Source: Octopus vulgaris
Lineage: Eukaryota
Direction: 5' to 3'
Assembly: GCA_951406725.2 (NCBI GenBank)
Contig: OX597834.1
Span: 11,284,001 to 11,348,000, forward strand
DNA length: 64,000 nt
Under the pieces are notes generated by a model that saw only the letters and a list, made by a program, of their open reading frames with translations, was not told the origin of the DNA and made no database searches. This document shows, one piece after another, positions 1,185-63,258 of this stretch (within the stretch, counting starts at the first letter, position 1; each line of letters opens with the position of its first letter). A program made the position numbers and the translations under genes.

Positions 1185-1380
1185 TCGCCATGATAGATCG
1201 GTGGCCACTACACGCATTTTTTTCTCTCCTTGTTTTATTTTGTGTCTGTGTCGCTCTCTGTAGAAGAGCGTAGGCTCGAAACGTGAAGGAATTTTTCTAT
1301 CCCTCAGCGTTATAATAATACATCTTTTTGTTTCGTACACCACCTGTCTTCGTCTTTTGTTTTTTCGTAAACTCTTCCCT
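1185..1380 (+). mobile_element. Family A: ~200-bp non-autonomous TA-embedded element with a hammerhead-like core (Penelope-like/retrozyme-like)
   Basis: Homologous to 39825-40001(+), 45633-45806(+) and 50503-50707(-), each bordered by (TA)n. Core CTGTAGA-A-GAGC-GTAG-GCTC-GAAA-CG at 1258-1283. Confidence 0.8.
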
Positions 1381-1440
1381 TATATATATATATATATATA
1401 TATATATATATATATATATATATATATATATATATATATA

Positions 1441-1542
1441 ATGATAATAAAGGGTTATTTGCAACAAGTTGCTTAAACCACATACCGAAAATATTAGAAA
1501 TAGCAGCCAAATAGTTTACCATTACTATTACTACAAAAATAG
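1441..1542 (-). mobile_element. Short TA-embedded fragment related to the terminus of the element at 23213-23693
   Basis: AAGGGTT..GCAAC..TTGC..CCACA.ACCGAA..TTAGAAATAGCAG.CAAA is shared with ~23324-23380. (TA)n on both sides. Confidence 0.5.
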
Positions 1543-2233
1543 TATATATATATATATATATATATATATATATTAGAAGGTTTGGAGATGATGTACATGT
1601 ACTATATATTAGAAGAAATGAGGTATTCAAAAATTTGGATGGTTTTATATTTACAGATATTTATTAGTATGTTACATGTTTTTATAAATCCTATATCATA
1701 TAATAGCGCTTTCGTCTACTCTAGTGGAGTGTTCAAATTCAATATATATACATATATATGCATTAATGAATAAATATGTGCATATATATGTGTGTGCGTG
1801 TGTGAATATGTATGTATATATATGCTAAGGTATTAGTATACATTAATGTATATATGTGTATTTATATATGTATGCACTTATTAATTGTATATATGTACTT
1901 AAGATATATAGTGTGCAATTTGCTTGGTGACTGGTTCAGCATAAAAGCACTCAGTTCAATTGGCGGTAAATATCATTTAACAAACAGTGGTGTTATACGT
2001 GAAATATTTCAAGTGCAGTGTTCTGGAAAATACAGTTTTCTGACAAGCTTGTATAGCATATTGTGCACGATCCAGCATTTGTCCAGGCTTATATACCATG
2101 ACTAAGTAAGAAAATATAAGGAATAACCCTGTCTCATTTACCCATAGAACATTTCTTATCGTGGTTTCTCTTTTATTTTCATGTACTTCATTATGGTGCA
2201 GCCGAATACAAAAGCAGACATTGAACAATTACA

Positions 2234-3258
2234 TTATATTTCGACATAGTCTCCTTGCTCTTCGATACACTGCTTCCAGCGGTCTATAATCGTGATTCCA
2301 TTACAGAAGATTTGCGCTGATTCTGCAACTAATTATGTACCGCTTCCTGGAGTTCTACGACTGTAGAAGATTGCCGACTCGGTAAAAGATGTTTAAGCGG
2401 TAGGAGGAGGTTATAGTCGAGACAAGTACTAGACTCCATGTAGAGTATTCCACCAGCAAGTCGAAATCCTATTTCAATTGTTTCAACCGGGTGGCAAGCC
2501 GTATATAAACGTGCATTACCATGCAACATTAACATTCGATATTACAATAGACTTCGGCATTTGGTGCGGATTGCTAATTTCCGTTTATTGGTTACCATTT
2601 TATTGTAGGCCACGGTTGTGTCTGCAGACACTTTTTACGTGTAATTTTCCTGTATAGGCCCCCTTTTTTGTTTGTACCACATATCAGTTAGCATGACTTT
2701 TTCTGCAGAAGTTTCAGTCTTGAATTCCTTTCTTAATGGCGATACCGGGAGATACCACTTGATAGCTTGCCTTTTGGATTCTGGTCCAAAGAATTATCTT
2801 CTGTGATTCTCAAAGCAAAACAAAAAGAAAACAAAGCTTTGCCTTCAACATTGTTGTGATTGAGAAAATGTTGACAGCTTTATTGATGCATATTTCGCTC
2901 AGTCTTTACGGAAGCTAAGATTGTCGAGGATGATTCTATATGAAGAACCAGGACTAATTTGCAGAAAACATGCTTCCTACTCGTTCGTCTGTTCATCAGA
3001 CCCATTACTCGAGCTTGTTGAAACTTCACATCAGTGTTGGGTGTTGATGGGTGTCCTGCTCCCTCTTCATGCTTCACGCTTGTCCGACCATTTTGAATTT
3101 GTCGATCTGCTCATACAAACAACTACGCGGTAGAGATATGGCCCTGTATTGAACTCATAGCCCACGAAATATTTCAGCGCTGACGCACCTTCAGGCTAGA
3201 AAAATCGAATTATAGATCTCTGTTCTTCTTTGGTGCGCACTGCTAGAGGGGCGGCCAT
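2234..3258 (-). pseudogene. Degenerate mariner (DD34D-type) transposase
   Basis: N-terminus MAAPLAVRTKEEQRSIIRFF, LHGNARLY (LHDNARPH motif) and C-terminal GDYVEI*. Broken by stops and frameshifts. Confidence 0.85.
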
Positions 3259-3322
3259 GTTTAATTTTTTTATCACAAGAGAGAAAACTGTAGCGATCAA
3301 GGTTAAACCCTGATAAACCGCC

Positions 3323-60645: not shown

Positions 60646-60680
60646 CCCTCTGACGAAGGCTTGAATCCGAAACGTTGGAT
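60646..60680 (+). ncRNA. Minimal hammerhead-like motif (family F), weak stem I
   Basis: CTGACGA A GG..CC GAAA CG TT at 60650-60676. The 3' half is duplicated in inverted orientation at 60567-60606. Confidence 0.6.
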
Positions 60681-60992
60681 ATTCCAATCTTTACATCAAG
60701 TTCACTACCCATTTAACTTTTTTCTATATTTATTCATATATATGTATATCTTATCGTTGTTGTATCCCATGTCATTTCTGCTTGAATACATCTATGACTA
60801 AAAGCGTTCACGCATGAATATTCTTCCTTCTATCTGAACCCACGTCCACAATATATAATATTCAAAAATTCCAATTGCTTTTCATAAAATGTAAGGCGGT
60901 ATTTATAAAACAGTTACTTCTATAACTTCAAGCAGCTTCGAAGTGAGTCTCCCATCGGACTGTAAAATGTTGTTGTTGTTGTATTACTCCCA

Positions 60993-61397
60993 CTTTTACT
61001 CTTTTACTTGTTTCAGTCATTTGACTGCGGCCATGCTGGAGCACCGCCTTTAGTCGAGCAAATCGACCCCGGAACTTATTCTTTGTAAGCCCAGTACTTA
61101 TTCTATCGGTCTCTTTTGCCGAACCGCTAAGTGACGGGGACGTAAACACACCAGCATCGGTTGTCAAGCAATGCTAGGGGGACAAGCACAGACACACAAA
61201 CATGTACACACACATACACACATATACATATATACGACGGGCTTCTTTCAGTTTCCGTCTACCAAATCCACTCACAAGGCATTGGTCGGCCCGGGGCTAT
61301 AGCAGAAGACACTTGCCCAAGATGCAAACGCAGTGGGACTGAACCCGGAACCATGTGGTTGGTTAGCAAGCTACTTACCACACAGCCACTCTCCTGC
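60993..61397 (-). mobile_element. SINE family 2, full length
   Basis: Reverse-complement match. Confidence 0.95.
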
Positions 61398-62398
61398 TTA
61401 GCCACGGGCGAGCTGCAATAATATAGACTAGCTGGGATCAAAGATATCCATTGTAACAAGATGAGTTTTAGGAACACTTGAGTGGGGTCTGGTCTTAACT
61501 TGTCACATACAAGTCGAAGAAAAGGAACCAAAAATCCGGCTGTCTTCGATAACAATAAATAACACTTTATTCTTCGGGTTCACAGGTAAAATATATACAT
61601 ATATATTTCTTAAGGGCGAACCGGCAGCCAAGTCCACAGGACTGTTTACAAATGTTCACTCGGGTGAGCCAAGAATATTACGGTCTCTGTTCACGCTTCG
61701 AAGAGAGAGCTTCTCTGTGCGTAGGGTTTTCTCTGAGAGAAGTTTTAGTCACGTCCGCTCGGTAGGGCTGCTCTTCCATTGGTTTCCATTGAAAATCTAT
61801 TTAAATGCCCGTGATCCAATTTTATTATTCCAAGATGGTAGGATGTGATCTGGGGGATACTTGCGGGTAATTTCTAACAGCAGATGCAACAAATTGAAAA
61901 CTGCACGCTAACATTGAAATATGTCACTTGTCTATAGAAATTAATATTTTTTTTAACATTGTGTGCTGGTAAAACTGGATATAGATCTAATATCAGACAA
62001 CTTCAAGCCTTTAAGAAGATATAGCAGGATTTTATATTTACAACAACAATGAACGATGTATATTTTCATATATTTTAAAACTGAAATTTTAAAATATTTA
62101 ACTGCTAAAATTAATAGGGCATGTGATGGCGTAGAATATCAATGCTTAAATACGTTGCGATTTCGCGGTACATTGAATAAGTCATTTAAAGTTTAATGGT
62201 ACCCCATTAGATACACACACACCTATCTATATACAAGAATGTATACATATATATATATATATATATATATATATATATATATATATATATGCGTGTGTGT
62301 GTGTATGAATGTATATATATATATATATATATATATATATATATGCGTGTGTGTGTGTATGAATGTATATATATATATATATATATATATATATATAT

Positions 62399-63258
62399 AA
62401 ACTGTACTGGAAGTATAAGAAGAAACGAAACGTAACGAATCGAATCGAATCCGTTCGTACATATATGTATGTATGTATGCATATATTTTATTTATTACAC
62501 AATTGTATGACTGAGCGCCTTCGCGTCGATTCGATTCGATTCGTTCCGTTTCTTCTTCTTCTCCCAGTACAGTTTTTATATATAATTATGACGCGAAACC
62601 CTATACCTCTTTGCTTAACCTTCCCTTCTCTCCCTTTCTCTCTCTCTCTCTCTCTCCTCCTCCTCATCTCTCTCACAGCCGTTTGTCTTCCTCTATCTCT
62701 CTCTCTCTCTCTCACTCCTCCTCATCTCTCTCACAGCCGGCCAAATACTTCCTTTTGCATGCGGCCTTCTAACTGTAAACACACGGTTTTCTTGCGCTCC
62801 TTGAATCTCTCCTCGTCTAGGCAAAAAAGGCCCTCTTTGGTTGTTTTCTTGTGTGTTTTTCTTTCTTGTATTGTATTTTTTTGTAATTGTATTTTTATTT
62901 TGTATTTTATTTTGTATTTTATTTTGTATTTTATTTTGTATTTTATTTTGTAATTTTATTTGTATCGTTTTTACGTCCTGTTTGTGTCACATTTTGTTCT
63001 TTCCTTGTTTTTAGCCCTCTGCGAAGTATTTTCCTTTAATTTCTTCGCAGGAAGGGCTAGTTCGACGAGTCATGTTCTGTCCTCACCTTCGAAACACGCT
63101 GGAGTTGAACTAGGGACAGCTGATGAAGGGGATTTTTCCTTGTGTAGTTTGTCTAGTACTCTGTTTTTTCTTTGTAAAAAACAGGTTCGTTCCATGCTTG
63201 TTTTTACGTTTTCGTTCTCGTTCAGTTCTGCGTCTATTTCTGGTGTCCTGTACTCACG
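62399..63258 (+). mobile_element. TA-embedded Penelope-like non-autonomous element with inverted partial duplication and rearranged hammerhead
   Basis: Inverted repeat 62399-62451 / 62528-62575. (TTTTATTTTGTA)n at ~62893-62952. HHR boxes at 63071-63131. TA tracts on both sides. Confidence 0.6.
63057..63131 (+). ncRNA. Candidate non-circularly permuted hammerhead ribozyme
   Basis: Order: CATG-TT-CTGTCC, then CCTTC-GAAA-CACG, then GGACAG-CTGATGA-A-GGGG. All three stems can pair. Confidence 0.6.

Follow-up and report, generated by a model that had tools for sequence, protein, structure and literature searches.

What are the hammerhead ribozyme motifs that crowd a short stretch of octopus chromosome, and what are the two among them whose parts stand in a rearranged order? 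The window analysed here is the whole stretch of 64,000 nucleotides of Octopus vulgaris DNA (assembly GCA_951406725.2, contig OX597834.1, positions 11,284,001 to 11,348,000 of the forward strand), which is AT-rich and microsatellite-dense. An earlier note, made from the letters alone, had counted about 14 hammerhead cores in it, sorted them into about seven families and interpreted them as non-coding parasites of the enzymes of Penelope-like elements (PLEs). In this study, it is considered probable that the window holds hammerhead-bearing PLE ends: ten truncated ends of coding elements, and three cores of non-coding tandem units that were likely copied in trans, two of the three having a predicted split-core form of the hammerhead.

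As the earlier note had stated, CUGANGA-like and GAAA elements were present at all 14 named sites (Table 1). They fall into multi-copy families and stand above the shuffled background; the family count of the note has to be corrected to eight. Families A and B form four-copy clusters within the window. Families C, E and F and both rearranged motifs (here G46 and H63) are multi-copy in the genome, and D gave 11 matches in 8 of 80 random stretches of 10 kb (800 kb), the sample used as genomic background. In the same sample we found 16 matches of A (including diverged relatives), 10 of B, 8 of C, 3 of E (partly through a flanking insertion), 2 of G46, 4 of H63 and one, spurious, of F. Extrapolated roughly from these counts, the whole genome would hold fragments of A, B and D in the tens of thousands. 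A strict type I descriptor found 3 sites in the window against 0.03 in 100 local dinucleotide shuffles. A looser descriptor, composed post hoc with the sites already known, found 9 (7 of the 14 named, and 2 unnamed that are probably chance) against 1.1 in shuffles (maximum 5). Loose matches were denser in the window (about 140 per Mb) than in the random sample (about 52 per Mb; 42 matches, against 7-16 in shuffles), so the window is richer than the genome average.

Other features described in the earlier note were borne out as well: 11 of the 14 cores have a (TA)n or (AAT)n run no more than 200 nt away, compared with 39.5% of random positions; stem III is palindromic in most; inverted partial copies accompany the B pairs, C, F and the motif at 63071; and searches detected no PLE reverse transcriptase (RT) or GIY-YIG coding sequence in the 64 kb. 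Damage to core or cleavage positions affects at least five copies: the core is mutated in 32574 and 46104, the cleavage position is G in 1258 and 34797, and U16.1 is lost from 50627. An Rfam scan of the window (E up to 10) gave no hammerhead among the best 150 of 457 matches; those listed were microsatellite-driven miRNA and snoRNA matches below the gathering score.

The two rearranged motifs

The two motifs flagged as rearranged in the earlier note (there 46091 and 63071) were both found to conform to a predicted split-core hammerhead. In the proposed model each would be a self-cutting hammerhead in which the three stems are crossed and a break between A9 and G10.1 interrupts the catalytic strand. 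Relatives from the random sample have GAAA preceded by the cleavage triplet, together with a single strand of stem III and of stem I, and followed by CUGANGA. The strand order would be, from 5' to 3', the first strand of helix X; hairpin Y; the 10.x strand of stem II; stem III (16.x), the cut and stem I; stem II (11.x), GAAA and stem III (15.x); stem I and CUGANGA; and the second strand of helix X. The two extra helices, X and Y, which hold the opened catalytic strand, were seen in five subfamilies.

Pairing of stems I and III was scored in 103 of 110 rows from the five subfamilies (seven rows were dropped: five truncated, one mis-anchored and one without an anchor). Stem III was paired in 92% of cells, against 23-61% when slid, and stem I in 95%, against 18-56%. 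Majority pairs were Watson-Crick at 11 of 11 positions within each subfamily, compared to 4-10 across subfamilies. Two-sided changes between subfamilies affect four stem III and three stem I positions, and compensatory changes were observed between subfamilies in stems I, II and III as well as in the added hairpin. In each of the five subfamilies, the pentamer that precedes GAAA finds a 5/5 Watson-Crick match at one unique place, 35-41 nt upstream. In the test of this upstream stem II, which used 100 rows and omitted L081 as well as three truncated rows, the first pair was always G10.1-C11.1, and pairing was 82-97% Watson-Crick, against 20-59% for the unsplit reading. The stem has three mutually incompatible sequences, across which two of the five pairs are retained. 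Hairpin Y adjoins stem II without a gap in all five subfamilies (7-8 bp; 4 bp in the subfamily of Naiad PLEs), and the strand directly 5' of Y pairs with the bases after CUGANGA to give helix X (3-7 bp). The catalytic positions, the U16.1-A15.1 pair, H at position 17 and G10.1-C11.1 are kept by the majority in every subfamily, and the chain is opened where minimal PLE hammerheads carry their extra base. A tight split-core pattern had 614 exact matches and its reversed control none.

The 5' ends of copies, which gather just 3' of the predicted cut, give a single hint of cleavage in vivo. By eye, 8 of 30 pattern-selected copies begin in the 15-20 nt between cut and GAAA, against a background of about 1 per 15 nt further upstream; the automated count in this zone was 5 of 30, and 4 of 10 second copies begin there. 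On sequence comparison, the split-core hammerhead is a well-supported structural variant. No published description of the fold was found in the literature searched, coverage of which excluded most subscription journals. Reading the motifs as type II or III failed by eye. Further diverged versions were noticed upstream in L248 and in sequencing contigs; these are outside the counts.

The motif is also found in Naiad elements. The published Naiad_Obim and Naiad_Ovul consensuses end in it (last 130 nt, by eye), and 25 of 30 loci chosen by the Naiad 3' untranslated region (UTR) carry it behind this UTR, two of them reaching the Naiad RT. A third version was detected at L081, in a family that ends precisely at (AT)n and matches the Naiad consensus ends. 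In the portions of Craig et al. (2021; PMC8557442) covered here, no canonical hammerhead is reported in Naiads, and Naiad_Ovul is marked 'HHR_half_core'. The Naiad copies that we saw were 81-88% alike and all broken.

Non-coding units and their possible helpers

Families C, H63 and G46 are closed, retrozyme-like non-coding units in head-to-tail partial tandems. Family C, whose 8-nt stem III is palindromic and whose 5' side bears a short inverted copy, was found as a head-to-tail dimer with a period of 581 nt. Periods of 782-821 were observed in 4 of 30 H63 loci, and of 622 and 695 in 2 of 30 G46 loci. H63 is young (97-99% identity among the 40 matches listed); G46 copies are 81-87% identical, and the ribozyme motif of the window copy (46218-46092) is decayed. 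Units of both families end in TA-rich parts adjoining genomic (TA)n. Each unit of C carries a type I hammerhead; H63 and G46 carry the split-core motif instead.

No PLE-like frame was detected in the H63 and G46 units, and a PLE protein match occurred at only 1 of 90 split-core loci, outside the element. No Naiad-type open reading frame (ORF; N-terminal GIY-YIG, C-terminal RT) was found in them with a Naiad query limited to a C-terminal RT fragment, and they shared no long stretch of similarity with the Naiad UTR. The H63 stretch is present in assembled contigs of 20 runs, whose RNA origin is our guess; four of the 20 contig sets were aligned and gave no joints or end pile-ups, assembled contigs being unable to reveal ends or circles.

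Of 6136 GIY-YIG candidates the best 150 were scored, and other intact helpers may exist among the rest. Intact Neptune-type ORFs of 781 aa, mostly 98-99% alike, with RVT_1 and GIY-YIG domains and (AT)n ends, were found. The most likely helper of H63, which is a guess, is this intact (AT)n-ended family, preferred because the Naiad copies seen are old and broken. The young intact Neptune element (L241-L250) is about 4.8 kb long, with an upstream frame of up to 479 codons and a 500-nt pseudo-long terminal repeat (pLTR); its minimal hammerhead apparently has a U3-A8 core.

Family E, which is followed by an unrelated insertion, had neither an ORF nor a head-to-tail wrap in six short loci. It has an extra purine between stem II and GAAA and also after A9 (51272-51310; L411-L416).

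Truncated ends of protein-coding elements

The 10 cores of families A, B, D and F belong to 3' ends of RT/GIY-YIG PLEs that have lost their 5' part and carry the known minimal type I hammerhead, since longer copies elsewhere extend into PLE coding sequence. The link to PLEs put forward in the earlier note was observed directly for these four families, the tails of which continue upstream into RT/GIY-YIG coding sequence; no such neighbour was found for the tails of C, H63 and G46. The interpretation as non-coding parasites therefore stands for 3 of the 14 cores (C, 46091 and 63071) and fails for the 10 of A, B, D and F. The type I order (CUGANGA, then stem II and GAAA, then a stem III that is loopless or palindromic, then NUH and stem I) was seen in A-F, with deviations in family A at position 6, in E (extra purine before GAAA) and in F (stem I of 2-3 bp). 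Clade names used here (Poseidon, Neptune, Nematis) are provisional and are based on linker motifs judged by eye and on the description of Craig 2021.

In family A, 30 loci were selected because their 5' end was longer; six of them extend into PLE RT/GIY-YIG sequence on the same strand. The ORF stops about 1,040 nt before the core, with a pyrimidine-rich UTR between, and comprises RT, cysteine linker and GIY-YIG, the Pfam match to GIY-YIG being weak. Position 6 of the core is U, with CUGUNGA in 72 of 89 matches. Most copies of the family are short. A 914-bp repeat around the A copy in L036 was considered as unit length and rejected as a local duplication. A ninth family outside the window, similar in layout to A, has CUGACGA/CCGACGA cores (L081, L106, L113, L138, L149).

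In family B, coding sequence continues into the B head at locus L017, and a search with the junction sequence gave 30 ORF-end loci, 23 of them with a hammerhead downstream. The ORF stops about 190 nt before the core. RVT_1 scored above cut-off in 2 of 6 frames from the ORF-end loci; the upstream frames show RT and GIY-YIG-like motifs, without the cysteine linker, and the ORF has 266 homologues, many with PF00078 and PF26215, among which the nearest one with a name comes from an octopus. This partner would be of Poseidon type. It was also noticed that the partner ORF is 57-67% identical over most of its length to proteins on long ENA contigs (P0003-P0022), which is close for an element from an unrelated source, and that (AAT)n connects truncated B copies (L013, L014, L016, L019) with tails belonging to other elements. 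Such joins suggest microhomology at 5' junctions.

A tRNA-like segment lies within the B 3' UTR, about 30 nt after the stop (54365-54425 and 32371-32464 in the window; L041-L070 elsewhere). The copies of the inverted pair at 32115..32675 are joined head to head within it. By eye, it contains putative A and B boxes. Rfam gave no tRNA in L018, and ARAGORN none in the window. Among 23 B copies containing the segment, 14 begin within -15 to +8 nt of its start. The segment is possibly an RNA polymerase III (pol III) sub-element similar to a short interspersed element (SINE), and B may include a short tRNA-headed subpopulation.

For family D, a 396-codon frame in L115 ends about 270 nt before the core; it has no Pfam match, and in the Atlas its end falls, at 0.95, next to a cluster of which 11% is GIY-YIG. 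For family F, a Neptune-like GIY-YIG end lies about 250 nt before the core in L419, in a frame 44% identical to the GIY-YIG frame of L117 (E 3e-13). An 809-codon frame at L115 (808-3234, minus strand) resembles an ORF of retrotransposons without long terminal repeats (non-LTR).

Table 1. Hammerhead-bearing features of the window, with positions counted from its first letter
Feature	Positions	Strand	Core start	Description
Family A copy	1186..1380	+	1258	Neptune-type PLE 3' end; CUGUAGA core; between (TA)n runs
Family C	23213..23691	-	23581	Part of a ~581-nt non-coding unit; type I hammerhead
Family B inverted pair	32115..32675	left -, right +	32245 (-), 32574 (+, decayed)	Poseidon-type PLE 3' UTR
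Family D	34670..34857	-	34797	PLE 3' end; ORF ending in probable GIY-YIG domain
Family A copy	39825..40001	+	39906	
Family A copy, shorter	45640..45806	+	45677	
G46 element	45986..46553	-	46104	Non-coding unit of H63-like architecture; older family
Family A copy	50504..50708	-	50627	U16.1 lost
Family E	50900..51320	+	51272	Long pyrimidine-rich non-coding leader and hammerhead; 5' boundary approximate
Family B inverted pair	54140..54613		54234 (-), 54515 (+)	
Family F	60530..60741	+	60650	Neptune-type PLE 3' end; inverted partial copy 60530-60606
H63 element	62400..63343	+	63120	Non-coding unit; partial head-to-tail tandem; 5'-side inverted tail; (TA)n-flanked
H63 split-core motif	63014..63131	+	63120 (CUGAUGA)	Helix X 63014-18 with 63127-31; hairpin Y 63019-63050; stem II 63051-55 with 63086-90; stem III 63071-75 with 63094-98; stem I 63077-82 with 63114-19; GAAA 63091; predicted cut between 63076 and 63077

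The window also contains two larger dispersed repeat clusters (34 and 12 intervals) without hammerheads, which are probably SINE and DNA-transposon families, and a 2.7-kb (TA)-rich array at 35596-38317. A 267-codon frame without a credible Pfam match adjoins a 131-bp tandem repeat of 3.5 units (15528-16331 and 16289-16751). Fragments at 27412-27885 (minus strand) and about 39500-39700 (plus strand) resemble mariner transposase.

Known systems, alternatives and implications

Minimal type I hammerheads of PLEs, with thousands of solo copies per genome, one additional base following A9, a stem III that is palindromic and pairs of copies on opposite strands, are already described in the sections of Cervera and de la Pena (2014; PMC4209133) considered here. 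Families A-F are alike in element order, in the extra base after A9 and G10.1-C11.1, in loopless or palindromic stem III and many families per genome, and in mostly solo truncated copies with opposite-strand pairs 100-700 bp apart. The same sections gave no noticeable counterpart to U at position 6 in family A; B differs in its 3'-UTR tRNA-like segment, and the rearranged motifs do not fit. A tRNA-like promoter next to a hammerhead, as in B, has been described for Schistosoma pol III SINE-like elements (PMC6765202, in part), but in B the segment sits on the 5' side of a minimal hammerhead, within the 3' UTR of a PLE that encodes protein.

The split-core motif is closest to the hammerheads of Eckert et al. 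(2023; PMC10085705), of which the excerpts used here were compared. As in types SGC, CSG and GCS, stems I, II and III cross; as in type SGC, the order is cleavage site, GAAA, CUGANGA, with a link of 2-6 nt between stems I and II. In type SGC, CUGANGA and the stem II strand are one uninterrupted block, with at most one or two bases known between CUGANGA and its stems, whereas the split-core chain has its two ends between A9 and G10.1 and two closing helices. The split-core motif is therefore close to type SGC and would work like it but is not a member, since CUGANGA is not directly followed by the stem II strand. SGC examples came from metatranscriptome contigs (HRIMA-1: soil, RNA), in contrast to the high-copy chromosomal retroelements of an animal found here; the supplement text of that study had no match to Octopus, Metazoa or Eukaryota.

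Similarities to Naiad PLEs, as far as the consulted text of PMC8557442 describes them, are the (TA)n insertion bias, 5' truncation and inverted copies; inverted truncated copies and microsatellite bias were already described there. The octopus Naiad 3' end shares the split-core fold of H63 and G46, which differ in having no ORF. C, H63 and G46 also resemble non-LTR retrozymes, non-coding hammerhead tandem units proposed as non-autonomous PLE derivatives (PMC7229834; Li et al. 2026, 10.64898/2026.07.22.740005; both in extract). Described retrozymes are type I, occur as dimers to long arrays and average about 300 nt, and circular RNA has been shown for them; C, H63 and G46, known here from DNA units, measure 580-820 nt and are mostly dispersed partial tandems with inverted ends, two with the split-core motif.

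Several other explanations were considered. The chance that the motifs are accidental matches in AT-rich, repeat-rich DNA is virtually nil: two of the nine loose-descriptor sites are unnamed and probably of this kind, and several copies are decayed, but shuffle controls, multi-copy families, covariation and the location in PLE 3' UTRs already refute it. It is highly improbable that all families are independent non-coding parasites of PLE enzymes, as the earlier note had it. The proposal holds for C, H63 and G46, and B copies beginning at the tRNA-like segment as a pol III transcript would (14 of 23), like the shortness of most A copies, agree with it; extension of A, B, D and F into PLE coding sequence contradicts it for four families. 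Quite improbable, too, is an ordinary type SGC without a split, in which the bases that immediately follow CUGANGA make up stem II. The order of cleavage site, GAAA and CUGANGA is that of type SGC, and such a stem II can pair in 72-98% of cells, but its pairs are mostly G-U (20-59% Watson-Crick), slid controls reach 78%, and the best SGC-type interaction (fourth) helix is not above shuffles, while in each of the five subfamilies the upstream strand pairs 5/5 by Watson-Crick, at one unique place and with covariation. Plain type SGC had been adopted at first and was dropped on this upstream stem II evidence.

Unlikely, but of more weight, is the possibility that the fold is real but serves as a protein-binding or RT-recognition structure (for example, kink-turn-like), or cuts only with the help of protein. 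The split-core heptamer resembles a box C motif, which we counted in its favour. Conservation of the catalytic positions, U16.1-A15.1, H at 17 and G10.1-C11.1 in hammerhead geometry argues against it, as do the 5' ends gathered just 3' of the predicted cut. In the consulted parts of the literature, PLE minimal hammerheads cut poorly (PMC4209133), and the Poseidon hammerhead is protein-assisted and dispensable in vitro (PMC11167929), both of which are consistent with a protein-dependent role.

A self-cutting split-core hammerhead within a population of PLE ends remains our preferred interpretation, and a number of observations weigh against one or the other part of it. The five subfamilies amount to only a few independent compensatory events, and core motifs served to anchor the rows. 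In the four non-coding subfamilies helix X hardly covaries (4/5 pairs survive), and in Naiad it has 3 bp and Y is short. The automated 5'-end count was 5 in -20..-1 against 4 in -40..-21, the baseline is one-sided with none downstream, and the pile-up could be RT stalling at a tight fold. In the available sections of PMC11167929, insertion in vitro did not require hammerhead cleavage, and none of the RNA reads had its end at the cut. The U6 core of family A may be inactive. The ORF junctions of D and F each come from one locus, and the D domain has no Pfam match. The intact Neptune family shares no sequence with any of the window's families, the non-coding units included, bar one unrelated flank match.

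A mechanism can be outlined from PLE biology. The GIY-YIG endonuclease would nick AT-rich or (TA)n DNA, and the RT would start inside the RNA downstream of the ribozyme, copy toward the 5' end and mostly stop early, which would yield the partial tandems, the partial copies in inverted orientation and the short stubs that bear a ribozyme. In the consulted part of PMC11167929, a Poseidon element is reported to nick AT-rich DNA and to start reverse transcription internally. In the split-core motif, helices X and Y would stack and bring A9 next to G10.1; with its full 5-bp stem III, the motif is predicted to cut as a monomer and to free unit-length RNA from read-through or tandem transcripts. The freed RNA would possibly be closed to a circle and copied more than one round. 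The non-coding units C, H63 and G46 are likely copied in trans by PLE enzymes. Tentatively, and at somewhat less than an even chance, the split-core topology, so far unprinted, may be an active monomeric ribozyme, the missing hammerhead of Naiad, and the driver of non-coding circular-RNA retroelements that outlive their Naiad source via Neptune enzymes.

Twelve of the fourteen motifs illustrate biology known since 2014; the two split-core motifs are the part for which no counterpart was found in the literature searched, most of the rest being known. Published descriptors assume CUGANGA and the stem II strand to be inseparable, so the split-core fold escapes them, which may explain reports of Naiads without hammerheads. 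Those reports had served as an argument that PLEs do not need hammerheads. The predicted monomer cutting, in which minimal PLE hammerheads differ, would make the role of the hammerhead in PLE transposition directly testable, and a young high-copy non-coding family beside an intact helper candidate would be a natural test of trans-mobilisation.

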